54,755 nucleotides of DNA, taken from a virus. Its lineage: Duplodnaviria; Caudoviricetes. Location: the IMG/VR virus record IMGVR_UViG_3300025276_000039, positions 1 through 54,755 of that record; one strand, given 5' to 3'. Positions 16,087 through 36,900 of the stretch are shown here, one piece after another. The notes beneath the pieces were generated by a model. It had not been told where the DNA came from. It ran no database searches and was given only the letters and a program-made list of their open reading frames with translations. A program made the position numbers and the translations under genes. Numbering within the stretch: the stretch's first letter is position 1; every line of letters begins with the position of its first letter.

Positions 16087-16869
16087 TTAAATTTCCCCTT
16101 GAATATAAAAATGCGTAGATGGCTTATCGCTTAGAGCGTAATCTTTGATTACATTCAGTGCGTGTTCCACCTTTCTACGGCCTGAGTCAAGAGTATCCTC
16201 AGAACATTTTAATGCCATTGGCAGGTATGGGTAAAATTTGTTTTGCGCCAACCAGTAATAGTCATCTATACCAAAAGCCTTGGTATATAGATATGCTTGG
16301 ACATCATAGCCCATACTTTTTACATCACGTTTGAAGGCCCACATATTGGAGGCTCGTGTACTTTTCAGGTCCGTTATAAACCCATCACCTAACACATCTA
16401 GAAATCCTCTAAATGGAATGACATGATTGCCTATTTCTAATTCTTTGTTGAACTCTACCTGATATTGTCCTTTGAGATAGATCTCTCGTACCCCACTATC
16501 CTCAAGCCTAGTAATCATATCGATTGCTTGCTGATGTTCTTCAGCAGACAGGTGTCTTTTACCTACAGACAACGCTTCTTGTTCCTTAAGCCATTCTTTA
16601 TATACCTTAGTTGCTCTAGGGTTTTTACCACCTATCTCTCCAAGGATTTCTTCCTCTTCAAGAACAAAGAATTGATTATCGAATTCATCCGGGGTAAATA
16701 ACATAACATCAAAGGCGGCACCAAAAGTAAATGCCTGAGAATCTTTCTTCATCTTCCCCTGTAGGTACATCTCTCCTTTTACTACATCATCTAGGAAGTG
16801 TTTAACAGACGAGTAAGACAGATACTTTTTCTGAGTCTTCTGAATTACCTTTTCAAACCAAGGACTCAT
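16087..16869 (-). CDS. RecE/exonuclease VIII-like PD-(D/E)xK exonuclease
   Basis: YLSYSS, FG.AF, FRGFLD, ITDLKST, YDVQAYLY motifs. Confidence 0.85.
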   Translation of the reverse strand: MSPWFEKVIQKTQKKYLSYSSVKHFLDDVVKGEMYLQGKMKKDSQAFTFGAAFDVMLFTPDEFDNQFFVLEEEEILGEIGGKNPRATKVYKEWLKEQEALSVGKRHLSAEEHQQAIDMITRLEDSGVREIYLKGQYQVEFNKELEIGNHVIPFRGFLDVLGDGFITDLKSTRASNMWAFKRDVKSMGYDVQAYLYTKAFGIDDYYWLAQNKFYPYLPMALKCSEDTLDSGRRKVEHALNVIKDYALSDKPSTHFYIQGEI

Positions 16870-17817: not shown

Positions 17818-18005
17818 GATATAGTATGTGTTATGTTATTAATTATCTTTTGATTAAACTTTTTGTCGAGGAATCGCAGTCTTTTCTGCATGTGGTGTAC
17901 TTCACCCCTGACCATGGTGGAATTCATCACGTCAGGTAAGGTATAGAAAAATTCTAAATCCCGATTGATGTCCTTGATTATTTGCTCAACTGATTCGTCT
18001 TTCAT
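17814..18005 (-). CDS. Hypothetical protein
   Basis: Tightly packed early-operon ORF. Confidence 0.65.
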   Translation of the reverse strand: MKDESVEQIIKDINRDLEFFYTLPDVMNSTMVRGEVHHMQKRLRFLDKKFNQKIINNITHTIS

Positions 18006-18006
18006 A

Positions 18007-18222
18007 CTAAATAGGGTTTTGTTTTTTATAATCTCTCTCCCAACATAAGGCCAGTTTTTTTACTTCTCTATTATCTAGCATCAATTCCAGGCCATTGGAT
18101 AGAATAAATACTGATCCTCCTGCATGATGTGCCCTTATGTTTTTATCCTTTAAGTAAACTACGGCCTTGATCGGATGTCGGTTACCTTTCCTCTCTTCAT
18201 ATGTGCTCCTTAAGTTATCCAT
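18007..18222 (-). CDS. Hypothetical protein
   Basis: Tightly packed early-operon ORF. Confidence 0.65.
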   Translation of the reverse strand: MDNLRSTYEERKGNRHPIKAVVYLKDKNIRAHHAGGSVFILSNGLELMLDNREVKKLALCWERDYKKQNPI

Positions 18223-18223
18223 A

Positions 18224-18445
18224 TCAAATAAAGTCTAGTTCAATGTCCTCCTTAAATTTCCTCTCGTCCTGAACAAGTAACAGCGCATCCTGTAACCGCT
18301 TCTTTAGTTTAGATTGTTTCTCCTCATGCAGGGCATGGGATATCTCAATTATCTCTGGAAGATTATCGTATAACAATTCATTGTTTACCTTCCCATTTTT
18401 TGTAATGATCTTAATTATTAGGTTTAGTTCTTCTTGATTTCCCAT
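18224..18445 (-). CDS. Hypothetical protein
   Basis: Tightly packed early-operon ORF. Confidence 0.65.
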   Translation of the reverse strand: MGNQEELNLIIKIITKNGKVNNELLYDNLPEIIEISHALHEEKQSKLKKRLQDALLLVQDERKFKEDIELDFI

Positions 18446-18446
18446 G

Positions 18447-18602
18447 TTAATCTATTTTATTTATCTCTACATAATTAAACTTGTTGTAACATTCCTTTGA
18501 GCAAAACAATGTGGTGGATTCGTACTCACATTCTAGGCAGTACCCACTGCCCTCCTCTGTATAGGGATTCCCTTGGTCTAGTCCTTCGTCGTGGTTCATC
18601 AT
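18447..18602 (-). CDS. Small zinc-finger protein, 51 aa (not in track)
   Basis: YCLEC...FCSKEC treble-clef-like motif; TAATG coupling to the upstream gene. Confidence 0.7.
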   Translation of the reverse strand: MMNHDEGLDQGNPYTEEGSGYCLECEYESTTLFCSKECYNKFNYVEINKID

Positions 18603-19183
18603 TAGTTCCTTACAATTCCCCAAACGATCGCTTGGAATTCATACCCTCTCACACCTACCATCTCTGCACATTTCAATGTTAGTTTTTCTAATTGCTTGTA
18701 CCTAAGTGGTGTCAATCCTGATTCAATAGTCTTACCAAAACATGCCCTTAAATGCCAGACATCTATAGTCACCTTGCTATCATCTAGTTCAGCGATATTC
18801 TTAACAAAGGAATAGGTCTTTGGTGATGCCTGATCGATTCCTCTCTCACCTCTGGCGATCTCAAATGCTTTGTTCTTATTGTTATTGAAGGTACATACCT
18901 TGACATCTTCGGGATTCATCCCCTTATTAACCGCTTCTAGAACAGTCCTCGTGTCAATTATATTTCTCTCCCATTTATTCCTTGGACTCAATGCACTTAT
19001 TACTTGTGCAGCAACAGCGGGATCATAGCCTAATTGCTTCCCCATGTTCCTACACATTTGGTTAGCGGTCTTGTACCACTGCATTCCATCTTCTGTATGT
19101 TGGTCTGTACGTGTTTCGTACATCTTTAAAAGATTATTTTTGATCTTTCGCAAGTGATAAGGTGATAAGGATTTGATTTTCAT
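18602..19183 (-). CDS. Conserved phage protein, DNA-glycosylase-like (DUF7178-like)
   Basis: WY...ISALSPRNKW.RN...PKTYSF...VTIDVWH.RA...QAIVW pattern. Confidence 0.6.
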   Translation of the reverse strand: MKIKSLSPYHLRKIKNNLLKMYETRTDQHTEDGMQWYKTANQMCRNMGKQLGYDPAVAAQVISALSPRNKWERNIIDTRTVLEAVNKGMNPEDVKVCTFNNNKNKAFEIARGERGIDQASPKTYSFVKNIAELDDSKVTIDVWHLRACFGKTIESGLTPLRYKQLEKLTLKCAEMVGVRGYEFQAIVWGIVRN

Positions 19184-19217
19184 AATTAAAAGGATTTGGT
19201 TTTGGTTTTGGTTTCTC

Positions 19218-19234
19218 GTACGTATATAAGTTAG
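19218..19234 (-). promoter_or_regulatory. Repeated early promoter/operator motif CTAAnTTRTATACGTAC, copy 1
   Basis: 17-nt motif also at 20201 and 21389, each followed by an AACCAAA-rich leader. Confidence 0.75.
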
Positions 19235-19236
19235 GA

Positions 19237-19440
19237 CTATTTTATTAATTGCTCCACTTTATGGGGATCGGTTGTCCCGAATCGTTTCTCATATGTTTTT
19301 AACATAGCCGTGATGGTGTCATATAGGGCCGAATCTTCAGGCAGGGACATATTCTCATTTCTTCTTTTCTTTAAGGAAAATAATTCTTTGTTGAAAATAA
19401 TCAGTGTTTGAATCTCGGTTAAACCTTTAGGTAAAATCAT
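19237..19440 (-). CDS. Hypothetical protein
   Basis: MILPKGLTEIQ...; ATG 19440 preferred over the track start. Confidence 0.6.
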   Translation of the reverse strand: MILPKGLTEIQTLIIFNKELFSLKKRRNENMSLPEDSALYDTITAMLKTYEKRFGTTDPHKVEQLIK

Positions 19441-19549
19441 AATAAAATATATAAATGAAAATTGAATAGATAGCCACATAGTATGCTAATAAGGTGGTGA
19501 GTAGGCCAATTATCCCCACCGCTAGCGTCATTCTTGGTTTTAATCTCAT
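19427..19549 (-). CDS. Small membrane peptide, 40 aa (not in track)
   Basis: MRLKPRMTLAVGIIGLLTTLLAYYVAIYSIFIYIFYYDFT; ATGA-coupled. Confidence 0.55.
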   Translation of the reverse strand: MRLKPRMTLAVGIIGLLTTLLAYYVAIYSIFIYIFYYDFT

Positions 19550-19716
19550 GCCCTCATGGCGTTAATGTATTCTTGATGTTGTGCAAGGAATTTAGACTTG
19601 TATTTCGGGTCAGTCATTGCCAGTGATAGTTCCCTTATCCAATCTTCATTTCGCATCAGACAATTATTGCGATCAACTTCATACATATAGGTTAGCATCT
19701 CTTCAATATCATTCAT
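19546..19716 (-). CDS. Hypothetical protein, 56 aa (not in track)
   Basis: MNDIEEMLTYMYEVD...; ATGA overlaps on both sides. Confidence 0.65.
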   Translation of the reverse strand: MNDIEEMLTYMYEVDRNNCLMRNEDWIRELSLAMTDPKYKSKFLAQHQEYINAMRA

Positions 19717-20174
19717 AATTGAAATGTGTTAGGTATAGTATGTCCTCCTTCAAGTGCTATAAATCCACCATAATCAATGATGTGTAAAAATTGCTCATGG
19801 TTTGGAATCTCACGATCGACCCATACCCATCTATAACCAATTTTTTCTCTTGACAATTCATATAATGCACCATCATACTCTTCCCAAATCATTTTACGAA
19901 AGTGAGATTCATGATTTCCATATAATAGTTTACTGAGAACAATCCATACAAAGCCATCGTCTTCGCACTTCAGCATGTAAGGTTTAGTCCCTTGGATTTG
20001 CCATAATACATCATCATCGTTCCAAGTATATCCAGTATGGTCTACAATAGACACATCTAGCGCATTCTCTACTGCTTCTTTTTCTTTTAGGATTGAAATT
20101 TGTTCATTAGTCATTATAACATCTTTAGGAATTGATCTCATAAACTTTTCAGCGTTCGACATTTCTTTATTCAT
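19713..20174 (-). CDS. Early hypothetical protein
   Basis: 153 aa, acidic and aromatic; preceded by the repeated promoter and leader motif. Confidence 0.75.
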   Translation of the reverse strand: MNKEMSNAEKFMRSIPKDVIMTNEQISILKEKEAVENALDVSIVDHTGYTWNDDDVLWQIQGTKPYMLKCEDDGFVWIVLSKLLYGNHESHFRKMIWEEYDGALYELSREKIGYRWVWVDREIPNHEQFLHIIDYGGFIALEGGHTIPNTFQL

Positions 20175-20200
20175 GGTTTCGGATTTGGTTTTTGGTTTGT

Positions 20201-20217
20201 GTACGTATATAAATTAG
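20201..20217 (-). promoter_or_regulatory. Repeated early promoter/operator motif, copy 2
   Basis: CTAATTTATATACGTAC on the minus strand. Confidence 0.75.
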
Positions 20218-20235
20218 GGAACATTCTTTTGCATT

Positions 20236-20424
20236 TCAACAATTATTTTTATTCCCATAGGGAACATTTGGTTCAGACTTCATATAAACACCTATCCCTT
20301 TTAGCGATGCACAATCACTGAACAGATTTATGAAATGATATTTACTCCAATCTTTGTTTAACATTTCCAATTCATTTAATTTTTGCCATTCGCTTGATCT
20401 CATTTCAAATATTTCAACTTTCAT
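20236..20424 (-). CDS. Early hypothetical protein
   Basis: ATG 20424 after an A-rich leader; the track start at 20463 lies inside the hammerhead. Confidence 0.6.
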   Translation of the reverse strand: MKVEIFEMRSSEWQKLNELEMLNKDWSKYHFINLFSDCASLKGIGVYMKSEPNVPYGNKNNC

Positions 20425-20442
20425 AATTATTTTATTTAAAAT

Positions 20443-20494
20443 TTCCGTTTCATGCTTTTGCAATCATCAGTTAAGGTTACACCTTAATACGGAA
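20443..20494 (-). ncRNA. Hammerhead ribozyme, type III
   Basis: UUCCGUA | UUAAGG-uguaa-CCUUAA CUGAUGA UUGC-aaaa-GCAU GAAA CGGAA; GUA triplet, cut between 20488 and 20487; stem II is short with a U.U closing pair. Confidence 0.8.
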
Positions 20495-20525
20495 GCAGTT
20501 TTACATCTTGCTTAGGATAGGTGGT

Positions 20526-20948
20526 CTATGTTAAGGGAATATTTACAGCGATTCTTTGGAACTTATCCGTTGAATTCTCAACACAGCGATAAGAAAGTCT
20601 TATAAGATTTATAGCCATGTGGTTATAATAATTTTCAATTATCTTGTCCTCTAGGTTTTCGGACAAATTGTCTGTCTCTAAAAGAGATTTAGCCAACTTG
20701 AGTATATCACCACTATAAAATGGTAAATCAATGACACTCGGTAAGCCACTTAGCCACTCGGCTATATTCCTTTCAATTGGAAGGTGGCAGTTGTTCTTAT
20801 GAATAAATTCCTTGCTGAAGGTTTCCAAAAGGAACGTCATCTTTTCAGATGGTGTATCGGTCTTTACTTGGTACTCTGTACCATCGATACTCTCTAGTAA
20901 GTAAGTATAGATATTATTCCTATACTGCGAAGAATTTGTCTTTAACAT
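20526..20948 (-). CDS. Early hypothetical protein flanked by two hammerheads
   Basis: 140 aa, includes IAEWLSGLPSVIDLPFY; function unknown. Confidence 0.8.
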   Translation of the reverse strand: MLKTNSSQYRNNIYTYLLESIDGTEYQVKTDTPSEKMTFLLETFSKEFIHKNNCHLPIERNIAEWLSGLPSVIDLPFYSGDILKLAKSLLETDNLSENLEDKIIENYYNHMAINLIRLSYRCVENSTDKFQRIAVNIPLT

Positions 20949-20967
20949 GGTTGTGGATTTTTAATTT

Positions 20968-21019
20968 AACCTGACCCCTTTCGGGGTTTCGTTCCATTTC
21001 AGGATACTCTTCAGAGGTT
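20968..21019 (-). ncRNA. Hammerhead ribozyme, type I
   Basis: AACCU CUGAAGA GUAUCC-ugaaau-GGAAC GAAA CCCC-gaaa-GGGG UC | AGGUU; complete core, GUC triplet, cut between 20973 and 20972. Confidence 0.9.
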
Positions 21020-21328
21020 TTTTACATACTCACAATCCTTTTCGGGTTGGGTTGAGTACTTTTCCCATTCACCACCGATAGACATCTCTTCAGACTCATT
21101 GAGTATATAGTCAATTAATATTCTCTTGTATCTATCAGATAAAGAAGCATAGAATCTCATAAATCCCAAAGTATTATCTTCTGATTCATCGCAAAACTTA
21201 TCGAAATTTTTGGCTAAGTGATCGGTGTGGGAGGTTTCTCTTGGGAAGGCTTTCTCTATGAAATCATACTCATAGTTAAAAGCATACATTAAGACTAGAT
21301 TACAGTTATTAAAGGTTTTGTTTTTCAT
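21011..21328 (-). CDS. Early hypothetical protein
   Basis: 105 aa; its UGA stop is the UGA of the hammerhead CUGA core. Confidence 0.75.
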   Translation of the reverse strand: MKNKTFNNCNLVLMYAFNYEYDFIEKAFPRETSHTDHLAKNFDKFCDESEDNTLGFMRFYASLSDRYKRILIDYILNESEEMSIGGEWEKYSTQPEKDCEYVKNL

Positions 21329-21388
21329 GATATTTATTTATTTGAGATTATTATGGTTGTCGAAATTTGGTTGGTTGGTTTTTCTTTC

Positions 21389-21405
21389 GTACGTATACAA
21401 TTTAG
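21389..21405 (-). promoter_or_regulatory. Repeated early promoter/operator motif, copy 3
   Basis: CTAAATTGTATACGTAC on the minus strand, with TTTG upstream. Confidence 0.75.
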
Positions 21406-21863
21406 CACCGCTTTTTCTGAACAAAACAAAAAAAATGTGAATTAATTTTCTTACGTAGTAAAAAAGTTTTTCATTCAGTTCTGGGGCAGTCTTGAACCTC
21501 GTGCCTAATCTATATCACTTTGAAGAATGATCAACTCTAAACACAATCTTGATTCCTAGCGCATGCCTATGGACATCCACAACTTGAGAAACAAGTCAAC
21601 CAATGTGTCCCCTCCTCTGGAGGGATAGGGTAAGTCGTTTGGGTTGGGGGCTGATTGTTCGCACCCTCCTTAAGACTGGTGGAAATTGCTGATCTGTCTT
21701 CGACAGTACTCCTCGCACCCTCCTACGCTGAGACCCACTGCCTTCGCGTGGAAACGCCTAAACCTTGCGCGCATTTCGGCAGGAAAGGCCCCCCCCGTCG
21801 AACTGGTTTGGGTTTCGGATCTCCTGGCTGACCGCGTGTATATATATATAATCCCCCCGGTAC

Positions 21864-22088
21864 TTATTTCTGATAACTTTTCGCAGACTTGCTCAAAGAC
21901 TTGAGTGCTGCTTTCTTGCTTTTGTATTTCGCTTTAAGTTGTGAGTACTTCCGCTGTAAAATCAATATTTGGGAATATTGCTTTCTAAGCCAGGGGAACA
22001 TAATAAGAACACCTAGCGCAAAAAATAAAGAACACAATGTGATCAAGATGATGACCTCAGGGTTGTCGTTTATTTGCTCCAGGTTCAT
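21864..22088 (-). CDS. Small membrane protein
   Basis: One TM followed by a basic coiled coil. Confidence 0.6.
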   Translation of the reverse strand: MNLEQINDNPEVIILITLCSLFFALGVLIMFPWLRKQYSQILILQRKYSQLKAKYKSKKAALKSLSKSAKSYQK

Positions 22089-22318
22089 TTGTCCTGGTGA
22101 AGTAGTAGTGACTTTCCTAGTGTAGGATTAATTTTAGATATGGCCCTATAGATGACCCTACTTTTTTTCTTAACATTTTGCTTCTCGGTCTTATTGCTAT
22201 CCTTTCCTAGGTTCTGATATTGTACAGCATCCATGTACAGTAGTTTGTCTACTCTGTACTTGTCGGATTGGTGTACGCATTTAACGGTTTTTTCTATTAA
22301 GGCCTCATTATATTCCAT
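22085..22318 (-). CDS. Conserved-looking phage hypothetical protein
   Basis: DKLLYMDA..Y.NLG.DS...KSR.IYRAI pattern recalled from Bacteroidota phages. Confidence 0.7.
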   Translation of the reverse strand: MEYNEALIEKTVKCVHQSDKYRVDKLLYMDAVQYQNLGKDSNKTEKQNVKKKSRVIYRAISKINPTLGKSLLLHQDK

Positions 22319-22490
22319 GTGTTCTCTGTCAATTGATTACTCTATTAAATTTTATGCAAAGGAGTAGCCCTGGCACACTGAGTTTCGTCTATTAAATGTC
22401 GAGATGTTCGTCGATGTACGACACAATCTATATTACGCTTGTTGCTTATAGATATGGTCTTTGTTCATATTGTCAACACAAAGACGTGTT

Positions 22491-22521
22491 CGAAGTTACA
22501 GTAAAAAAATTGGATATGCAA
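22491..22521 (-). promoter_or_regulatory. Promoter TTG-N20-TAACTTCG
   Basis: -33/-7 spacing fits the Bacteroidota consensus; one mismatch in the -7 box. Confidence 0.55.
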
Positions 22522-22560
22522 CACTTGTTATAACATCCTTTCCCCTTAACTCTTCTAGAT

Positions 22561-22716
22561 CTAAAACTTATTGTGTCTGTTCATTAGGATACCTAAATAG
22601 ATACATATCATTCCTAACAGTGATTTGAGAGTTCCTGTAGGTAGGAGCACCCCGCCAGTTATCATTAGTGCCTCTGGCAGTATTGTTTTAATAAAGGATA
22701 TGATTCTATCTTTCAT
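22561..22716 (-). CDS. Small two-TM membrane protein
   Basis: MKDRIISFIK...; ATG 22716 preferred. Confidence 0.55.
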   Translation of the reverse strand: MKDRIISFIKTILPEALMITGGVLLPTGTLKSLLGMICIYLGILMNRHNKF

Positions 22717-22789
22717 CTCTATAGAATGTATATAAAAAGAAAACAAAAGAGGAGATCACCATTCCGTATAACATCCCCAGGAGTAACAT
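22706..22789 (-). CDS. 27-aa hydrophobic peptide (not in track)
   Basis: MLLLGMLYGMVISSFVFFLYTFYRDER; TAATG-coupled. Confidence 0.4.
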   Translation of the reverse strand: MLLLGMLYGMVISSFVFFLYTFYRDER

Positions 22790-22959
22790 TAGGCTGTTCT
22801 TCCGGCAGCGGCCTTAGCGGCCATCCCTGCTTTTCCGAATTTCTTTGCGCCTATTGAGTAAGCAATCTTCTGTGCAGACTCTTTAGACTTTCCTTTTTTC
22901 ATAAGTTGAGCAACTAATTTCTTGAATGCTCCACCTTTATCGAATTTATTTTTCATCAT
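22789..22959 (-). CDS. Small Lys/Ala-rich basic protein, 56 aa (not in track)
   Basis: MMKNKFDKGGAFKKLVAQL...IGAKKFGKAGMAAKAAAGRTA. Confidence 0.75.
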   Translation of the reverse strand: MMKNKFDKGGAFKKLVAQLMKKGKSKESAQKIAYSIGAKKFGKAGMAAKAAAGRTA

Positions 22960-23590
22960 TATTTCTTTTAGGGTACATATTCATCTCTGGATCGGACATA
23001 CCGTCCGGTAATATACCAGAGGAACTTAACTCTGTTATAATCTCTTCGGCATCTCCTGGCTTTAGATTAGGAAGAACACCTAGTATAGATCCAACAAAGT
23101 TATTTGCTACATCTTCTCCTGTAGTTCTTAGTGCATCATACACTCCACGGAGGCCATTCTTCCCATATCCTTCTTTTAGTGCCGATGGTAAATGCTTTGC
23201 TTCATGTCCTGCGCCCAGTATATTGGCGGTAACTAAACCTGCGGCATCTCCAATTATGTTTGTTATGACATTGGAATTATAACCTCCGGTAATCATATTG
23301 CTTATATTTTGTGCAGTATATGTTCCAGCCAATGCATGACGTATGTTATCAGTTTGATCATCATCTACCCGACCAGACTCAACTAAACTCCCAGCATAGT
23401 TGTATGCTTTTTCTTTTGGATTGCCTATAAAATCATTTACTTGTTGTTCACGAGTAGGTGCCCCTTCAGGTGGGTCGACAAAGTCGCTCATCCTGTCAAC
23501 CATTTTTCCAGGAGATCTGTATGCTTTAATCTGTTTCTTTACAGCGGAAAGTTTACCGCCTTCCTCAAGGGGTCTGAACCTATAGTTCAT
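22946..23590 (-). CDS. DUF6973-like helical domain protein
   Basis: DNIRHA...GHE...EDVANN.VG motif set. Confidence 0.55.
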   Translation of the reverse strand: MNYRFRPLEEGGKLSAVKKQIKAYRSPGKMVDRMSDFVDPPEGAPTREQQVNDFIGNPKEKAYNYAGSLVESGRVDDDQTDNIRHALAGTYTAQNISNMITGGYNSNVITNIIGDAAGLVTANILGAGHEAKHLPSALKEGYGKNGLRGVYDALRTTGEDVANNFVGSILGVLPNLKPGDAEEIITELSSSGILPDGMSDPEMNMYPKRNNDEK

Positions 23591-23787
23591 CCCGCATCAA
23601 CTCCTCCGCCTTTCGCCATTGCGTCGTCGAAGACAATACCATTCAATACTAATAACTCTCTTCCGTCTCTACTTTTCAACATCTTAGAAAAAGCAGGAAC
23701 GTCTTTAGCGATAGGAGCGAATACCTCTGTGCCAGAAGAAAGATTTTTGTTCTCTGCAAAAGGAACTTGCTTACGATACTTTGCCAT
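23587..23787 (-). CDS. Hypothetical protein
   Basis: TAATG-coupled to the amidase gene. Confidence 0.6.
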   Translation of the reverse strand: MAKYRKQVPFAENKNLSSGTEVFAPIAKDVPAFSKMLKSRDGRELLVLNGIVFDDAMAKGGGVDAG

Positions 23788-24455
23788 TATAACAATTTTA
23801 ACATTTCTATTATCTCTGGTTGAGGGAATATGTCTGACTTATCCTTTCGTACAGAGTTGTGTGTAAAGATACCACTTTCTCCCCTTAGTGCTTTCTTTGA
23901 AACTCCCCACATATCTCTAGCATTGTACTCTGTATTAATACCATAATGCTCTTTCCAATACTTTAACAAGTTCTCTGTACTTCTTATCTGCTCGTCAGAG
24001 TACCTATGATAATACCGGTGCCCTTTGAATGGTTCTTCTAATGTACACACCTCTTCCTTTGGAACCTCTTTGTTTACGTAGTTATAAAAACGACCCTTCT
24101 TTTCTTCTAAGTGTCCCCACGCGCAAAGTTCTATACCTATGGAACGCTTATCTAAAGGAACATAATCAAGATTGTACGAATCAAACACCTCACGTTTAAT
24201 CCCCAAGTGATATGCCCAGTACTTACTAGAGAATGCCTGGACAATTTTACCATCACCTTCTGCTGCCCCAGTATTAGATATGCAGACGCATGTGGCTATA
24301 CGACCCCTGGTGTCATTGTTCCAATAGTTAACCGTGTTTTTACCACTAGCATTCCCGGCTGTGTGGTGTAAATAGATCTGATTCTTTTTATGTTTCTCCT
24401 TAACATACTCGTTAGAGGATAACTTAACCTGTAATATATCATCAAGAAAACTCAT
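23787..24455 (-). CDS. Endolysin, N-acetylmuramoyl-L-alanine amidase (Amidase_2)
   Basis: IYLHHTAG, WAYH.G, SIGIELC, H....DKSD zinc-binding pattern. Confidence 0.9.
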   Translation of the reverse strand: MSFLDDILQVKLSSNEYVKEKHKKNQIYLHHTAGNASGKNTVNYWNNDTRGRIATCVCISNTGAAEGDGKIVQAFSSKYWAYHLGIKREVFDSYNLDYVPLDKRSIGIELCAWGHLEEKKGRFYNYVNKEVPKEEVCTLEEPFKGHRYYHRYSDEQIRSTENLLKYWKEHYGINTEYNARDMWGVSKKALRGESGIFTHNSVRKDKSDIFPQPEIIEMLKLL

Positions 24456-24481
24456 AATGTCTCATTTGCTTTTTTCATAGT

Positions 24482-24498
24482 CAAATCTATTAACTTTG
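24482..24498. promoter_or_regulatory. Back-to-back divergent -7 elements
   Basis: TAGATTTG on - (24482..24489) toward the amidase; TAACTTTG on + (24491..24498) toward the holin-like gene. Confidence 0.7.
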
Positions 24499-24519
24499 CA
24501 TATACACATACATACTGAA

Positions 24520-24744
24520 ATGAGTCTAATAGATATATTTAAAGACGATAACAATTATAACGAGAAGACCATTATAGGTTTTATATCGTTTGCTGTTATG
24601 ATAGTAGTGATGATCGTGGATTTGGTTACAGGTTGGTTAGGTAAAGACCTGGTAGTCAATGAGTTTATATATAATTCATTCTTGTTTGTCACCCTTGGAT
24701 CATTTGGGATTGCAGGACTAGAGAAATTCTCACAGAAAAAATGA
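24520..24744 (+). CDS. Putative holin (two TM)
   Basis: Two hydrophobic helices and EKFSQKK tail; divergent from the amidase. Confidence 0.55.
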   Translation: MSLIDIFKDDNNYNEKTIIGFISFAVMIVVMIVDLVTGWLGKDLVVNEFIYNSFLFVTLGSFGIAGLEKFSQKK

Positions 24745-25016
24745 AACTAAAGAAAACCAAGGACAGTAAAAAGGTAAAAGCCCCCGAAGGATTTCACTGG
24801 ATGACAGAGAATGGCCGTCATTTTTTAATGAAGGGAGATTACAAACAACACACAGGCGCTAGTGAAGCCGCTTCATTCAGAGTTGTTAGCCATGACAAGG
24901 ACATGAAGGCTGACATGGGAATGAAAGTAAATGCCGCAAAGGAAGCAAAGAGCCGACTCAAGACTATGGAGTACGAGAACGGAGGCAAAGTAAAAAAAAA
25001 GTTCAATCTAAAGTAA
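24741..25016 (+). CDS. Small basic protein; may extend by a -1 frameshift to 25174
   Basis: APEGFHWM motif; A_AAA_AAG near the 3' end. Confidence 0.7.
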   Translation: MKLKKTKDSKKVKAPEGFHWMTENGRHFLMKGDYKQHTGASEAASFRVVSHDKDMKADMGMKVNAAKEAKSRLKTMEYENGGKVKKKFNLK

Positions 25017-25174
25017 ACGAGGCAGGCAATTACACTAAGCCATCATTACGCAAAAGAATATTCAATAGAATAAAGGGCGCGGCTAAAGGAGGTAACGCAG
25101 GACAATGGTCTGCAAGAAAAGCACAGATGCTCGCAAAAGCATACAAGGCTGCTGGAGGAGGATATAGAAACTAA
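25001..25174 (+). CDS. Start-less conserved basic domain in the -1 frame (SKVNEAGNYTKP...GQWSARKAQMLAKAYKAAGGGY)
   Basis: Recognisable phage motif normally found upstream of DUF5872-like genes; no ATG/GTG/TTG between the TGA at 24911 and the conserved block. Confidence 0.8.
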   Translation, partial: VQSKVNEAGNYTKPSLRKRIFNRIKGAAKGGNAGQWSARKAQMLAKAYKAAGGGYRN

Positions 25175-25419
25175 TGGCATTACGTAAATCACAACAATCA
25201 TTAAAGAACTGGACAGCCCAGAAATGGAGAACTAAGTCTGGGAAAAAGTCTTCTAAGACTGGGGAGAGATACCTTCCTGAGGCCGCCATAGAAAGTATGA
25301 GCGACGAGGAGTACGCTGCAACAACGGCAGCAAAAAGAGAGGGTACAAAGAAAGGAAAACAATTTGTTGCTCAACCTAAGAAGATCGCAAAGAAAACTAA
25401 GAAGTACAGAACTAACTAA
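25174..25419 (+). CDS. DUF5872-like small basic protein
   Basis: SQQSLKNWT.QKWRT...GERYLP...KR.G.K.GKQFV.QP. Confidence 0.75.
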   Translation: MALRKSQQSLKNWTAQKWRTKSGKKSSKTGERYLPEAAIESMSDEEYAATTAAKREGTKKGKQFVAQPKKIAKKTKKYRTN

Positions 25420-25846
25420 AAGGTTCTTCCCCGTTCATCTTTCTATATAAACGCGTAACGACTAGACGACCCCTTTGTGTAATGGCATAACGCACCCTAT
25501 AATTATATTTTGTTTCATCCCTAAAGTATGCATCTTCTACATTAGCACTAGGTGTCAACTTGTCAAAATGTTTATAAACCCATCCATCACTAACCATTTG
25601 ATAGATCAACCTTTTACGCATTCGTGACTCGCTCTTATTCAGCGCTTTAGCAATATGCTCTATGGTAAAAAACTCATAGTCATAGATGAACATTAAGAAA
25701 TCTAACTGCGCCCTACCTAGTTCATGATTTTTTTTTGCCTCTTGATATAAAAAGTGTAGGTTCTTAAGGTTAGTATAAGAGATCTCATTTGAATCTTTCT
25801 TAGCGAACTCCCGAAATAACTTCTTTCGGCTTGCGTAACTTTTCAT
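25412..25846 (-). CDS. Winged-helix (MarR-like) transcription regulator
   Basis: QLDFLMFIY...TIEHIAKALNKS...GWV...YAITQRGR. Confidence 0.7.
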   Translation of the reverse strand: MKSYASRKKLFREFAKKDSNEISYTNLKNLHFLYQEAKKNHELGRAQLDFLMFIYDYEFFTIEHIAKALNKSESRMRKRLIYQMVSDGWVYKHFDKLTPSANVEDAYFRDETKYNYRVRYAITQRGRLVVTRLYRKMNGEEPFS

Positions 25847-25854
25847 GATATAGG

Positions 25855-25873
25855 TATCTTTGTTTCAAAAGTA
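25855..25873. promoter_or_regulatory. Face-to-face -7 elements
   Basis: TATCTTTG on + (25855..25862) and TACTTTTG on - (25866..25873) in a 32-bp divergent gap. Confidence 0.7.
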
Positions 25874-25878
25874 ATAAT

Positions 25879-26817
25879 ATGGGAAGTCTTAGCGGTGTAA
25901 AAATTAAAGATACATTTGGTATTCTATTAAAGATGGCCACATCACAGTTGTCGGCTACAGAAGAAGTTGTACAGGATGGCGCGGGAAACAATAGCGCACT
26001 AAAATTATCAACGGATACAGTAGAAACTACAGGAGAATTAAAGATAGGATCAGCCACTACATCCACTACGGATAACCAGGCATTAATGCTAAGTTCTGGT
26101 GGTGTTGTAGTTCAAAGAAATCTCTCGACAAATCCTATAGGTACAGCGAGTATTACAGCGAATAGCCCTATCGTTGCTACAGGAAGTACAGTAGGATTGA
26201 CTGATCCATCCGCATTAACTTCCCTAGCGGCAAAAGACGTTGCCAATAACGATCAGTACTTAATATGGGACGAATCAACATCCTCATACAAGGCTATCTC
26301 TATGACAGACGTAGCAACCTCTGTTGAGGGTAGAATAGCAGCAAACATAAACGTATTTACCGCAAGGGTAGCGGCACAAACTATTGCAGGATCAGGAGCA
26401 GACATATCTTTTGCCCAAACCTTTGGACTGGCTGACGACACAGGAACAACTATTGCAACATCATCTACCGCTATAGGAAGCGCTACGGCTGACGTTACAC
26501 TGGCAGATGGTACAGGAATAAGGACAGACATTCAAATAAACACAACAAGTCAGTATAGGGTTGAATTAGATTTAGAAGTAACAACAGCAGGATCTCAGGT
26601 CGTTACTATACAACTTGTACATGACTCCGCAGCCATAATGAGATTCTCAGAAACACTGGCCTCAGGAACAAGTACGGTATCGTTAAGCAGATCATTATAT
26701 GCTACTGGTGGATTACTCTATCAAGTAAAAGTAACAGGAGGTGACTCAGTTCAGGTTACAGCAAATAGTACAGTAAGAGTTTTAAGAGAAGGCGCTCCGA
26801 ATACTGCATTCTCATAA
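25879..26817 (+). CDS. Putative fibre/structural protein
   Basis: Thr/Ser/Ala-rich with a beta-rich C-terminal domain. Confidence 0.6.
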   Translation: MGSLSGVKIKDTFGILLKMATSQLSATEEVVQDGAGNNSALKLSTDTVETTGELKIGSATTSTTDNQALMLSSGGVVVQRNLSTNPIGTASITANSPIVATGSTVGLTDPSALTSLAAKDVANNDQYLIWDESTSSYKAISMTDVATSVEGRIAANINVFTARVAAQTIAGSGADISFAQTFGLADDTGTTIATSSTAIGSATADVTLADGTGIRTDIQINTTSQYRVELDLEVTTAGSQVVTIQLVHDSAAIMRFSETLASGTSTVSLSRSLYATGGLLYQVKVTGGDSVQVTANSTVRVLREGAPNTAFS

Positions 26818-33985: not shown

Positions 33986-36900
33986 ATGTCAAACCCAGGA
34001 CCTATCGACATTATTATAACTGAAAAGCCTGCACCTGTAGTAACCATAACTGAAAAGCCTGGAGATGTAGTAACCATTACTCAGCCAAAGCCTATATCTA
34101 TTGATATTAATAATGGAGCCGTAGAGCAACTTGTTGGATCAAAAGGTCAAAAAGGTGCTCAAGGAGAGAAGGGTACGAAAGGTGAGGTAGGTCCTAAAGG
34201 GGCGGAAGGTACTAAAGGTTTACAAGGGGTCAAAGGAGAAAAGGGTGAGAAAGGTCTTGATGGAGATGGAGACAAGGGAGCGAAAGGACAAGACGGTCAA
34301 AAAGGTGAACAGGGTGCTTCAGTAAAAGGACAGAAAGGTGAAGAGGGTTCTGATGGAGACGATGGTGCTAAAGGACAAAAAGGTCAAGAGGGTGCTTCAG
34401 TAAAAGGACAAAAAGGTCAGCAAGGTGATTCTGTCAAAGGACAAAAAGGACAAGATGGCGCTTCAGTAAAAGGTCAGAAAGGTGAGGCCGGTACTGATGG
34501 AAGCGATGGAGGCAAAGGACAAAAAGGACAAGATGGTCAAAAAGGTGAGGCCGGTACCGATGGAGACGATGGAGCCAAGGGTCAGAAAGGACAACAGGGT
34601 CTATTGCCTGCTGCAACATATGAGTATGTATTTAGCACTGATGTATCAGGAAACCCTGGTACTGGTAAGGCTAGGTTCAATAATGCGACTCAGAATACAT
34701 CTACCTCTGTTGTTATAAACTCTACTGACAAAAATGGAGACACTATCCCTACCCCAAGCGCTGGGTCGGTATTGGTAAGATCTGTAGCCACATCTACAGA
34801 CTTTGTAAACTTTAACATTAATAGTGTTGCAATTGATACAGGAATAATAACCTGTACTGTTAATGTACAAGGCAGTAGCGCAAATAGTCCATTTAGTAAT
34901 GGAGAAGAAATAACTTTATCTTTTGCCGAAGGTGGAGCCAAAGGTGAAGTCGGACAGAAAGGACAAGACGGTCAGAAGGGCGAGAAAGGTCAAGACGGTG
35001 CTTCAGTAAAAGGACAAGATGGTCAGAAAGGTGAGCAAGGTGCTTCAGTTAAAGGACAAAAAGGAGTGGCTGGTGCTGATGGAGGCGATGGAGGCAAAGG
35101 ACAAAAAGGACAAGATGGTCAGAAGGGTCAAGATGGCGCTTCAGTCAAAGGACAAAAAGGAGTGGCTGGTGCTGATGGAGGCGACGGAGGCAAAGGACAA
35201 AAAGGACAAGATGGTCAGAAGGGTCAAGATGGTGCTTCAGTTAAAGGACAAAAAGGAGAGGCTGGTGCTGATGGAGGTGATGGAGGCAAAGGACAAAAAG
35301 GACTAGATGGTCAGAAGGGTCAAGATGGCGCTTCAGTCAAAGGACAAGATGGTCAGAAGGGTCAAGATGGTGCTTCAGTCAAAGGACAAAAAGGAGAGAA
35401 AGGTGAAAAGGGAACCAGGGGTCAGAACTCTGCGAACAGTTATCCCTATAACTTTAGAACAGATACTTCTGGGAACCCAGCCGATGGGGACCTAAGAGGA
35501 AACGAAACAAATCAGAACGCATCTACCAGAATTGTTCTCAATCAAACGGATGGTGATGGTTTAACTATCCCTGCGGTGGGTGCTAATCAGGCAGGAACTA
35601 TAACCATAAGAGGTGTAGAAACCCAAACAAACTTCTTGACGTTCGACTTTAGTGGAGGCGATACTGCCTCTGGAGAAGTAGAACTTACTGGATCTATTAG
35701 TGCTTCAAGTGCCACCAGTCCTTTTACTGACAATACATCAGTCACTGTTTCTTTTGTGTTTGATGGAGCCAAAGGAGAGAAAGGTCAGAAAGGACAAGAC
35801 GGTCAAAAGGGAATAGATGGCACTTCTGTTAAGGGTCAGAAAGGTGCAGAAGGAACTTCTGTTAAAGGACAGAAAGGCCAAAAAGGAACAACAGGAGCAC
35901 AAGCACCTAATGTATTCCCTTATACTTTCAAAACAGACACATCAGGAAATCCTGGTGCTGGAGAACTTCGGGGTAACCAATCCACACAGAACACATCAAC
36001 ACGGATTGTCTTAAATCAAACCGATGGAGATAATGTAACTATCCCTGCCGTTACTGGATCGCAAGCAGGTACTGTTGTCATTTCAGGAACAGCGGAAAAT
36101 TCTGGGAACTTTTTACAGTTTTTATTTACTGAAGGTTCTACTACTGGTGGAGAGATAGAACTCTCAGGAACAATGTCTTCCTCTAGTGCTGCTAGTCCGT
36201 TTAGTAATGACGACACTGTCAATGTTGCGTTTCAGTTTGACGGAACAGATGGCGCTAAAGGTGAAAAAGGTCAAGACGGTGCTTCAGTAAAAGGACAGAA
36301 AGGTGCAGCAGGAGCAGATGGGACCTCTGTTAAAGGACAAAAGGGAGTGGCCGGTACTAATGGTGACGATGGCGCTAAGGGTATTAAGGGTCAAGACGGT
36401 GCTTCAGTTAAAGGACAAAAAGGTCAAGATGGTGCTTCAGTTAAAGGACAGAAAGGACAAGATGGCGCTAAGGGTATTAAGGGAGAGAGGGGTGAGAAAG
36501 GAATTGCAGGAACAAACGCTGCCAATATATACCCTTATACTTTTAAAACAGATACCTCAGGAGACATGGGTTCTGGTGAACTTCGAGGTAATCAGTCCAC
36601 ACAAAACACTTCTACGAGAATCAAGTTGAATTCCACAGATGGAAACAATACGACTATCCCCACTCCGACGGCTCCAGGTTCTGTAACCTTACGAGAAGTA
36701 GAGACAGAAAGTAACTTCTTAATCTTTGCATTTAGTACAGTAACTGTAGATGCTGATCAGATAGAATTAGAAGGTAGCATAAGCGCCTCAAGCGCGTCTA
36801 ATCCTTTTGATGGTGAAGATAGTATTACTGCCTCATTTGTTTTTGATGGATCGGACGGTGCAAAAGGTCAAAAAGGACAGGCGGGAGCAGACGGGGCTTC

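Follow-up and report, generated by a model that had tools for sequence, protein, structure and literature searches.

Predicted Type I and Type III Hammerhead Ribozymes Between Small Genes of an Uncultured Phage, and Their Probable Role in Processing Polycistronic RNA

Genes at the Locus

The DNA analyzed here (the window, 54,755 nucleotides) represents an uncultured phage of ~55 kb that looks lytic and is related to phages of Flavobacteriia; its identity as a phage rests on terminase, portal, and tail genes. Three small genes follow one another on the minus strand. ORF A, the upstream gene (21011..21328; 105 aa), belongs to no recognized Pfam or PHROG family. ORF B (20526..20948; 140 aa) matches phrog_11100, a family of unknown function (E 7e-20), gave no match to a Pfam family, and is 92% and 84% identical to homologues on two IMG/VR contigs. 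ORF C, the downstream gene (20236..20424), encodes 62 aa from the ATG at 20424. Two hammerhead motifs, 474 nt apart, lie around a single gene in the window, ORF B. A blastn search with positions 19500-22500 found no match in a phage collection.

A 44-nt promoter- or leader-like repeat, D1 (21363..21406, minus strand), stands ahead of ORF A. Its direct-repeat family has three copies with 66-100% identity, the others lying at 20175-20218 and 19192-19235, each just before a minus-strand ORF; the copy at 20175-20218 precedes ORF 20174..19713. A transcript carrying both ribozymes may start at the D1 copy at 21363..21406. The initial annotation had proposed a three-gene early transcript. Such a unit is plausible, with D1 repeats before ORF A and before ORF 20174..19713; the genes belong to a minus-strand, non-structural module, and gene order suggests that it may be early. 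Scans for sigma-70 promoters and terminators across 18000-26500 did no better than shuffles and are uninformative for a probable Bacteroidota host. ORF 19713..20174 also gave a Pfam RLIG1 score of 12.2 bits, below the cut-off of 25.

The Two Hammerhead Motifs

The type I hammerhead occupies 20968..21019 of the minus (coding) strand (read 21019..20968) and was identified from sequence, descriptor, fold, and family. Read from the sequence, helix I is open-ended and has 5 bp; the core comprises a CUGAAGA box and a GAAA strand after helix II; helix II has 5 bp and one bulged A, with G-C as pair 10.1-11.1; and helix III has 4 bp under a GAAA loop plus a core-adjoining C-G pair. Cleavage is predicted after a GUC triplet, at 20973/20972, which would give a 24-nt leader followed by the ORF B ATG at 20948. 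The TGA stop of ORF A (21013..21011) falls within the CUGA box of the ribozyme. The MFE fold of the 52-mer is a three-way junction, also within 111-112 nt of native context, with a folding-energy z-score of only -0.99. A loop-loop or pseudoknot contact was sought in this element, whose helix I has only 5 bp, and none was found. The helix II loop reads UGANAU (among the compared copies, N stands for A or G), a pattern fixed by the search; a partner for it was sought and not found. Six nucleotides upstream, within the end of ORF A, the MFE fold of 21060..20949 predicts a minus-strand hairpin (21027..21059). The RAGATH-1 model has a 5′ hairpin to which it aligns. In the relatives G001 and G003 the sequence upstream of the type I is different, and by eye the hairpin is not evidently conserved.

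The type III hammerhead occupies 20443..20494 of the same strand (read 20494..20443), recognized on the same four grounds. Its predicted cut, read from the sequence, follows a GUA triplet at 20488/20487, 38 nt past the last base of the ORF B stop (20526). Helix III is open and has 5 bp, helix I has 7 bp with a 3-nt loop, and the core has a CUGAUGA box and a GAAA strand after helix II. Helix II is capped by an AAAA loop and has 3 bp plus a core-adjoining U-U at 10.1/11.1, a position that lacks a Watson-Crick pair here and is usually G-C in hammerheads. U10.1-U11.1 is a natural variant with more activity than other mismatches, according to the available text of Perreault et al. (2011; PMC3088659), so it does not bar the element from the hammerhead class, although it may slow cleavage. 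The 52-mer has a three-way junction as its MFE fold, again also within 111-112 nt of native context, and its z-score is -2.44. Model R1 scores this copy at 70.5 bits, the copy having been in the training set of the model.

The type III element sits in an intergenic spacer (20420..20530, minus strand) made up of ~35 nt of conserved leader, the ribozyme, 18 A+U-rich nucleotides, and the ATG of ORF C, which begins 18 nt past the ribozyme 3′ end. The spacer is 96.4% identical over 111 nt to G001 36168..36058, the flanking coding DNA is 80% identical between the two, and the neighbor genes differ. A second copy in G001 is 85% identical and the copy in G003 91.8%; the gene downstream of the spacer differs between the window, G001 (two tandem copies), and G003. 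Judged from these alignments, the 111-nt spacer behaves as one portable block. Further copies of its leader were sought across the window, and only the leader itself was found.

Detection in the Window

The final descriptor specified the exact core and all three helices, allowing one bulge or one closing mismatch. Applied to both strands of the 54,755-base window it returned exactly two sites, the type I and the type III, and on dinucleotide-preserving shuffles it returned none in 1000. An earlier descriptor had missed the type III because of its U-U, and another had missed the type I because of its bulge. Both elements carry the full core (C3 U4 G5 A6 N7 G8 A9, G12 A13 A14, A15.1-U16.1, H17). 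Two loose descriptor matches near 16.1-16.3 kb had very long loops and were regarded as chance.

Rfam at gathering thresholds gave no match anywhere in the window. In E-value mode over 20350-21100, the type I element matched RAGATH-1-hammerhead at 22.5 bits (E 0.32; gathering 56.3), and no Rfam hammerhead model matched the type III at E <=10. The comparison with Rfam models that the initial annotation had suggested gives a match below gathering for the type I and nothing for the type III. Twenty loci with type III family members were likewise without a match to any Rfam hammerhead model at gathering score; phage hammerheads of both families are missed by Rfam 15 at those thresholds. Over the type I region Hammerhead_3 scored 14.8 bits in a mis-registered alignment, which was discarded, and the G+C-rich segment 21330-21900 returned nothing at E <=1.

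Covariation and Start-Codon Spacing in Two Families

Both motifs belong to families. The search patterns fixed the core and parts of helix II and required minimal helices, and only the free positions serve as tests. For the type III, a core pattern with four free positions matched at least 119 stretches in IMG/VR. The full architecture was present in 120 of 127 among the matches listed, and the two variable pairs of helix II were complementary in 125/125 among the matches listed. Alignment A1, with 83 distinct rows among the matches listed, has helix I paired in 99.7%, with six of its seven pairs changing on both sides, and the free pairs of helix II paired in all 83 rows; the inner pairs of helix III covary as well. 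The covariation score of helix I was 0.674, against <=0.129 for slid partners, and 0/500 shuffles reached as high a value. With regard to a tertiary contact between helices I and II, which speeds cleavage at low Mg2+, two loop-side positions of helix I (columns 15-16) are invariant or nearly so. The AAAA loop is fixed by the pattern, as is the U-U found in every family member.

The type III copies also have a regular genomic placement. A same-strand ORF of >=50 aa begins 8-35 nt on in 74 of 98 distinct contexts among the matches listed, and only 2 of these 98 contexts place the ribozyme inside a same-strand ORF; in 21 of the 98 it overlaps a mechanically called opposite-strand ORF (>=50 aa). 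A strong hairpin lies directly upstream in 53/90 among the matches listed, vs 14% of 270 control windows.

The type I family, assembled from the window, IMG/VR, and metagenome sequences, comprises 45 matches and 33 distinct copies. All 33 are complementary at the three free pairs of helix II, in nine combinations; several different helix I and helix III sequences occur, all of them paired; and the full type I descriptor is passed by 27 of the 33. An alignment of seven copies (A2) was poor in helix III owing to length differences, and the tabulated copies were used instead. The leader from cut to ATG measures 23-29 nt in 17 of the 26 copies with a downstream ORF. In both families the distance to the next start codon is fixed.

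These data uphold the two hammerheads of the initial annotation at the positions given above, by sequence, descriptor, the 0/1000 shuffles, compensatory changes, and family membership; that both lie on the coding strand, differ in topology, and are not duplicates of each other is borne out by reading the sequence. The weak stem II had been counted there against the type III. It proves instead to be the conserved hallmark of a large phage family, and its variable pairs are complementary in 125/125 among the matches listed.

Arrangement in Related Sequences

G001 and G003 both keep the type I element before their ORF B homologue; a U-A pair of helix II has become C-G there, and helix III has another sequence but still pairs. 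In the type III copies of G001 (two) and G003, helix I has C-G in place of a U-A pair and helix II has C-G in place of G-C. An extra gene lies between ORF B and the spacer in both relatives, in which the type I and type III enclose two genes. G001 has three hammerheads, around one and two genes, with a 59-aa gene unit between its two tandem type III ribozymes; G003 has two. The single-ORF bracket described in the initial annotation is therefore specific to the window, and as to its question of whether ORF B homologues are ribozyme-flanked elsewhere, a type I does precede them in G001 and G003, without the same one-gene bracket. A further sequence, G002, has an ORF C homologue (75% identity) that starts at the equivalent ATG; it has no type III ahead of it and a different type I hammerhead after it, and the homologue scan found no ORF B in G002. 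Another sequence, L144, carries three hammerheads within 1.9 kb.

Proposed Role in mRNA Processing

We consider it likely that both elements are genuine hammerheads that lie between small genes and would process a polycistronic RNA, with cleavage, transcript extent, and benefit as the conjectural parts of this reading. Self-processing of the transcript into separate mRNAs, which the initial annotation had also put forward, is the most likely role on the grounds of motif, fold, conservation, covariation, and fixed start-codon spacing, with cleavage itself presumed. Each ribozyme would fold and cut itself during transcription, so that ORF A, ORF B, and ORF C would end up on separate messages. 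After the type I cut the ribozyme body would remain on the upstream RNA; the ORF A message would end in it, with a 2′,3′-cyclic phosphate, and hairpin 21027..21059 together with the type I would make a structured 3′ end. The ORF B message would gain a short, unstructured 5′-OH leader. The type III body would remain on the downstream RNA and give the ORF C message a folded 5′-OH cap that ends 18 nt from the ATG. The benefit would be that each gene has a defined leader, independent of upstream sequence. The RNA ends would also resist 5′-monophosphate-dependent and 3′-exonucleolytic decay, such that the stability and translation of neighboring cistrons would be uncoupled; this expected gain in stability and insulation is argued from what is generally known of RNA decay and not from Bacteroidota data.

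A more far-reaching reading, to which we would give somewhat less than even chances, is that both families are dedicated leader-making modules of phages, natural counterparts of synthetic ribozyme insulators, which would place a 5′-OH at a set distance from the start codon and serve as portable junctions at which genes are swapped. It is unlikely that the ribozyme spacers are mainly such junctions, providing shared homology for cassette swaps or duplication, with cleavage secondary or serving to make incoming genes expressible. The pattern of identity does suit that account, in that the window and G001 share 96% identity over the 111-nt spacer but have flanking genes that are 80% identical or unrelated, that the spacer precedes different genes in the window, in G001 (two tandem copies), and in G003, and that in G001 and G003 an extra gene separates ORF B from the spacer; which genes clustered hammerheads flank also varies in the available account of Perreault et al. 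(2011; PMC3088659). Homology for recombination needs no catalytic core, however. Yet in the distinct copies compared, at least 83 of type III and 33 of type I, the core is invariant and the helices compensate, which shows selection on the RNA fold. Exchange at these junctions is in any case compatible with mRNA processing and does not exclude it.

The same compensatory changes weigh on the notion that at least one of the motifs is an inactive relic or a chance resemblance, in spacers that act as promoter, terminator, or protein-binding site, which we regard as very unlikely. Rfam thresholds are unmet, the U-U of the type III adjoins the core, the type I combines a short helix I with an unremarkable folding energy, and the ~35 nt upstream of the type III are conserved without an assigned role, all of which would fit it. 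Against this, 0/1000 shuffles yield any match, many independent copies keep the core invariant and show compensatory changes in every helix, and the U-U variant is described as tolerated in the available text of Perreault et al. (2011; PMC3088659).

The processing reading is separate from the proposal, also made in the initial annotation, that the RNA between the two cuts becomes a circle. That piece (20972..20488) does measure 485 nt, as had been calculated, and holds the complete ORF B with its leader. Hammerhead cuts leave 5′-OH and 2′,3′-cyclic phosphate ends, which are joined by RtcB, and the predicted cuts would leave the piece with ends that an RtcB-type ligase could join into a protein-coding circular RNA. 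Every hammerhead product bears such ends, however, so that they are no specific signal for circularization. The proposal finds no support in the arrangement: the bracket is not conserved, as G001 and G003 have two genes between their type I and type III and as the ORF C homologue of G002 has no type III before it, with no ORF B homologue detected there; the two ends of the excised piece derive from ribozymes of different types, I and III, and cannot re-form one for self-ligation; and the MFE fold of the 485 nt leaves the ends unpaired and apart, not juxtaposed. No ligase gene was recognized when 24 ORFs of the window were compared with PHROGs. Retrozymes and viroid-like circular RNAs resemble the 485-nt piece in having hammerheads at both ends of the unit and the same end chemistry, but they have the same type at both ends, a rod fold, and a conserved unit, all three of which are absent in 20972..20488. 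Circular or spliced products of clustered prophage hammerheads were sought and none were detected, as reported in the available text of Perreault et al. (2011; PMC3088659). We therefore hold a circular RNA made from this piece to be highly improbable. A speculation to which we would attach equally little credence is that a translatable circular mRNA forms during infection by rejoining of the 485-nt RNA or, as the more plausible substrate, of the 59-aa gene unit enclosed by the two tandem type III ribozymes of G001.

Comparison With Known Hammerheads

The closest precedent for processing comes from prophages, where clustered hammerheads flank genes and cleaved in vitro, those of A. tumefaciens also in E. 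coli (PMC3088659); processing of polycistronic RNA was proposed for them, according to the available text (Perreault et al., 2011; PMC3088659). Those clusters, as described there, and the present locus share mixed types on one strand, single genes or short blocks flanked, and variable gene content. They differ in that the 2011 clusters lie in prophages of Clostridium, Azorhizobium, and Agrobacterium, while this locus belongs to a lytic-looking uncultured phage of Flavobacteriia type; in that both families of the window escape Rfam at gathering score, in contrast with those clusters as far as the available account goes; and in the fixed ribozyme-to-start-codon spacing, which is absent from the visible part of the 2011 account. 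Both sequence families may already figure in Dataset S1 of that paper (PMC3088659).

Among the Rfam models, RAGATH-1 (RF03152) describes a type I with a 5-bp helix I, a preceding A-rich run, and an upstream hairpin, and the type I of the window aligns with it end to end; the match stays at 22.5 vs 56.3 bits, and the upstream hairpin is not evidently kept in G001 and G003. Hammerhead_3 (RF00008) has the topology of the type III of the window but does not match it, the latter differing in its 3-bp helix II under AAAA and its U-U closing. Type I hammerheads of chrysovirids and fusarivirids, found in 5′ UTRs and intergenic spacers, have a helix II of ~6 bp with a bulged A and lie just upstream of an ORF, as does the type I of the window, in the available part of the report (NAR 2026, PMC13725137). 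Three IMG/VR sequences (L006, L007, L145) that match the helix II pattern of the type I are themselves chrysovirus-like, with RdRP_4 and fungal-virus capsid domains. Those viruses have RNA genomes, infect fungi or plants, and have leaders of 95-121 nt, in contrast to the DNA, bacterial host, and 24 nt here, and the role proposed for their ribozymes in the same report, as available, is eukaryotic translation initiation (PMC13725137).

Synthetic insulators of the RiboJ type, engineered from a plant satellite RNA ribozyme, use a hammerhead, positioned after the upstream sequence and before the ribosome-binding region, to trim a variable 5′ part and leave a folded 5′-OH end, giving context-independent expression. 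The layout of the type III family matches these insulators; the phage modules have their own sequence families, and an effect on expression is hypothetical.

The locus adds no new principle, the gene-flanking arrangement of phage hammerheads having been known since 2011. It is a clean case, with two topologies, strong family covariation, and each element at a fixed distance from a start codon, and the family layout of hairpin, ribozyme, 8-35 nt, and start codon makes a concrete prediction about leaders and RNA ends. A literature search, with subscription journals and supplements mostly outside it, found no paper on hammerheads of Flavobacteriia phages or on fixed ribozyme-to-start spacing in phages; a 2019 review, in its available text, urges more work on the role of DNA-encoded bacterial and phage hammerheads (PMC6765202).

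Three related records of isolated phages were scanned. Loose matches to the core in MW202828.1 and PP540027.1 were no more numerous than in reversed-pattern controls, and convincing hammerheads came from NC_055854.1 alone. This record, Flavobacterium phage elemoE, has a type III with the same style of helix I and a canonical helix II, matching Rfam Hammerhead_3 at 36.3 bits (E 1.7e-5), and a type I lies 1.8 kb downstream on the same strand; the predicted GUA and GUC cut sites fall near record positions 18150 and 16310. As a cultured phage that carries both types and has a Baltic host, Flavobacterium sp. BAL314, elemoE is suited to testing mRNA processing. In its record a small opposite-strand CDS is annotated across the hammerhead spacer, which we attribute to phage hammerheads being missed by Rfam 15 at gathering thresholds.

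Hammerhead Ribozymes Flanking a Small Phage Gene

Two complete hammerhead motifs can be read from the minus strand of the window, a type I ribozyme at 21019..20968 and a type III ribozyme at 20494..20443. Helix I of the type I element is open and 5 bp long, and helix II has 5 bp and a single bulged A; a CUGAAGA box, GAAA, a short closed helix III and a GUC triplet complete the element, whose predicted cut (20973/20972) lies 24 nt ahead of the ATG of ORF B (20948..20526, 140 aa). In the type III element, helix III (5 bp) is open and helix I (7 bp) closed; it also has a GUA triplet, a CUGAUGA box and a helix II of 3 bp under an AAAA loop, in which a U-U adjoins the core, followed by GAAA. Its predicted cut (20488/20487) falls 38 nt past the stop of ORF B, so that 485 nt of RNA separate the two cuts. 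The initial annotation, in which two hammerheads bracketed ORF B, was correct on both elements and on all these distances; it did not mention that ORF A, which lies upstream (21328..21011, 105 aa), has its TGA stop codon within the type I CUGA box.

With a descriptor that requires an unaltered core and the full set of three helices, and permits one bulge or one closing mismatch in helix II, the window yields these two sites only, and 1000 dinucleotide-preserving shuffles yield none. The minimum-energy structure was a three-way junction for each 52-mer, also within 111-112 nt of native context, with modest folding energy z-scores (-0.99 and -2.44). Rfam at gathering thresholds gave 0 matches across the whole window. 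In E-value mode, the type I element aligned along its whole length with the RAGATH-1 hammerhead model, scoring 22.5 bits against a gathering score of 56.3, and no Rfam hammerhead model recognised the type III element up to E 10. The U10.1-U11.1 mismatch is described as one with which helix II can begin, and as the best tolerated in an earlier mutational study (Perreault et al., 2011, PMC3088659).

The window, an entire IMG/VR virus record (54755 bases, completeness rated 96%), carries terminase, portal, tail-fibre and virion genes on its plus strand, while the minus strand from ~25.8 to 10.7 kb encodes numerous small ORFs and then exonuclease and primase/helicase genes. Phages of Flavobacterium, Cellulophaga and Maribacter have large terminases 38-47% identical to its own, which makes a host among the Flavobacteriia likely. 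Because both ribozymes are located amid the small minus-strand ORFs, calling the genes around them early is a reasonable guess, gene order being its sole basis.

Conservation of the Locus in Related Phages

Homologues of ORF B occur in two IMG/VR contigs, G001 (55.7 kb) and G003 (a 15-kb fragment), each time with a type I hammerhead directly ahead in which a helix II pair has changed from U-A to C-G and helix III is different yet fully paired. The type III ribozyme is also kept, in two copies in G001, with changes of G-C to C-G in helix II and of U-A to C-G in helix I. In both contigs, the ORF B homologue is separated from the first type III ribozyme by an additional gene; type I and type III bracket two genes there, vs. 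one in the window. The related contig G002 has an ORF C homologue with no type III ribozyme in front and a different type I hammerhead directly behind. In a block comparison with G001, the 111-nt spacer carrying the type III ribozyme (20530..20420, minus strand) is 96.4% identical, compared with 80% for the coding DNA upstream, and the downstream genes are unrelated, so that the spacer behaves as a portable block. The tandem type III spacers of G001 (35797-36133, minus strand) are 85% alike. They have a 59-aa gene between them and a paralogous gene behind them, which suggests that a cassette of ribozyme plus gene was duplicated.

The Type III Family

A pattern with the core, the U-U, a U-A pair and the AAAA loop fixed, and four helix II positions free, matched at least 119 IMG/VR stretches, as well as 24 stretches in bacterial genome contigs, which represent several phyla and come mostly from metagenome bins. 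Since the set was chosen by pattern and minimal helices, the free positions are the true tests; they were complementary in 125/125 among the matches listed, in seven combinations. The architecture was type III in 120 of 127 listed matches, some of the other seven being type I ribozymes that share this helix II. Across 83 distinct sequences among the matches listed, helix I was 99.7% paired, with six of its seven pairs changed on both sides, and the covariation score was 0.674, vs. at most 0.129 with slid partners; 0 of 500 shuffles reached it. The bracketing used for this score had helix II misassigned. Rfam at gathering thresholds found no hammerhead in 20 loci holding family members.

Placement follows a common layout. 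Among the matches listed, 87 of 98 distinct contexts had an ORF of 50 aa or more on the same strand within 1.5 kb downstream; it started 8-35 nt past the ribozyme 3′ end in 74 of those, with a median of 24 nt over all 87. An upstream ORF ended no more than 60 nt away in 62 of the 88 listed contexts having one. Only two of the 98 ribozymes lay inside a same-strand ORF, and 21 overlapped a mechanical opposite-strand ORF. The 42 nt directly upstream reached -8 kcal/mol or lower in 53/90 of the listed cases, vs. 14% of 270 controls. The window's type III ribozyme conforms, lying 18 nt before the ATG of ORF C (20424..20236, 62 aa); the hairpin upstream of it is weak. Some members (e.g., L042, L046, L064, L071, and L073) have a common A+T-rich motif in place of the hairpin. 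This motif may be a phage promoter, in which case the ribozyme would trim the primary 5′-triphosphate end and not separate cistrons.

The Type I Family

A pattern in which the core was fixed together with the loop of helix II and its bulged-A frame matched 6 IMG/VR and 37 metagenome stretches; with the window, this makes 45 copies, of which 33 are distinct. In 33/33 distinct copies the three free pairs of helix II were complementary (nine combinations), and 27 satisfied a full type I descriptor. Where a downstream ORF was present, the leader from cut to ATG measured 23-29 nt in 17 of 26 copies, most of which combine the window's helix I with several different paired helix III sequences; remaining leaders were 12 nt (two copies) or 57-126 nt. 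One 13.5-kb phage contig holds three type I hammerheads with differing helices within 1.9 kb (L144, 3338-5252, minus strand), and the window's helix I recurs in one of them.

Among the longer-leader copies are three IMG/VR contigs (L006, L007, and L145; 2985, 3462, and 3712 bases) that encode RdRP_4 and fungal-virus capsid domains and resemble segments of a chrysovirus-like RNA virus. In each contig, 95-121 nt separate a type I hammerhead from the ORF behind it, and the contig termini fall within further hammerhead copies. Helix II of these hammerheads hardly differs from that of the phage type I ribozymes, and agrees with the bulged-A helix II of the type I hammerheads that a 2026 report describes in chrysovirid 5′ UTRs (PMC13725137).

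A cultured, tractable relative, Flavobacterium phage vB_FspP_elemoE_6-9C (NC_055854.1), carries a pair of hammerheads on one strand, separated by 1.8 kb. Its type III ribozyme has a helix I in the style of the window family and a canonical helix II, scores 36.3 bits with Rfam Hammerhead_3 (E 1.7e-5, below gathering), and lies 17 nt ahead of gp59, where it heads a leftward operon beside a divergent intergenic region; its type I ribozyme (RAGATH-1, 27.8 bits) lies 28 nt ahead of gp66. The 35-aa CDS gp65, an annotation that crosses the type I hammerhead's spacer (16289-16396) in the opposite orientation, is probably a spurious gene call.

Proposed Transcript Processing and Predicted Fate of the Cleaved RNA

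A 44-nt direct repeat (19192-19235, 20175-20218, and 21363-21406; 66-100% identity) stands directly upstream of three minus-strand ORFs, namely 19183..18602, 20174..19713 and ORF A. It has a tail rich in C and A on the coding strand and resembles a promoter with a leader. Genes of this stretch that do not have the repeat have a ribozyme spacer in its place. If transcripts start at the repeat, ORFs A, B, and C would form one unit, from which co-transcriptional cleavage would release three RNAs. The ORF A message would carry a cyclic phosphate at its end, behind a predicted hairpin and the type I body; that of ORF B would have a bare 24-nt 5′-OH leader and a 3′ end 38 nt beyond the stop; that of ORF C would carry a 5′-OH and begin with the folded type III body.

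Conservation, covariation, and placement of the ribozymes are observed, and cleavage, the shared transcript and the benefit are inferred. The self-processing of a three-gene transcript put forward in the initial annotation is supported as the best reading. Both families keep a fixed spacing to start codons, which argues that the purpose is a defined leader and end for the downstream gene. Engineered ribozyme insulators act in much the same way. The hairpins upstream of the ribozymes suggest protection of the upstream message.

The same annotation also proposed that the 485-nt piece could circularise into a circRNA, an idea that is not supported. Its ends would have the chemistry that this needs, but such chemistry is common to every hammerhead product; moreover, the single-gene bracket is not conserved among relatives, the two ends derive from ribozymes of different types, and the predicted fold leaves them apart. 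We regard circularisation as very improbable for this piece; a test of the idea would be better placed at the tandem type III pair of G001. The ORF that follows the three-gene unit (153 aa; 19713-20174, minus strand) matched Pfam RLIG1 (RNA ligase 1) at E 0.082 and 12.2 bits (cut-off 25), a below-threshold match that is probably noise.

Processing of mRNA fits what is described for prophages, where multiple hammerheads often surround single genes or short blocks, the bracketed genes not being constant; three arrays self-cleave in vitro, one of them also in E. coli, implying that long phage transcripts are cut into gene-length mRNAs, and the account given there considers circular or spliced products and reports none detected (Perreault et al., 2011, PMC3088659). 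A 2019 review still counted the purpose as unresolved (PMC6765202). Flanking phage hammerheads are a known kind, and the added value here is modest: a family-level placement rule, and the finding that current Rfam thresholds miss these ribozymes.

Upstream of the unit, a G+C-rich non-coding stretch (21480-21860) lies between ORF 22088..21864 and ORF A in a phage that is otherwise A+T-rich. Rfam gave no match within it at E up to 1. It is 81-83% conserved in G001 and G003 and may be a structured RNA.
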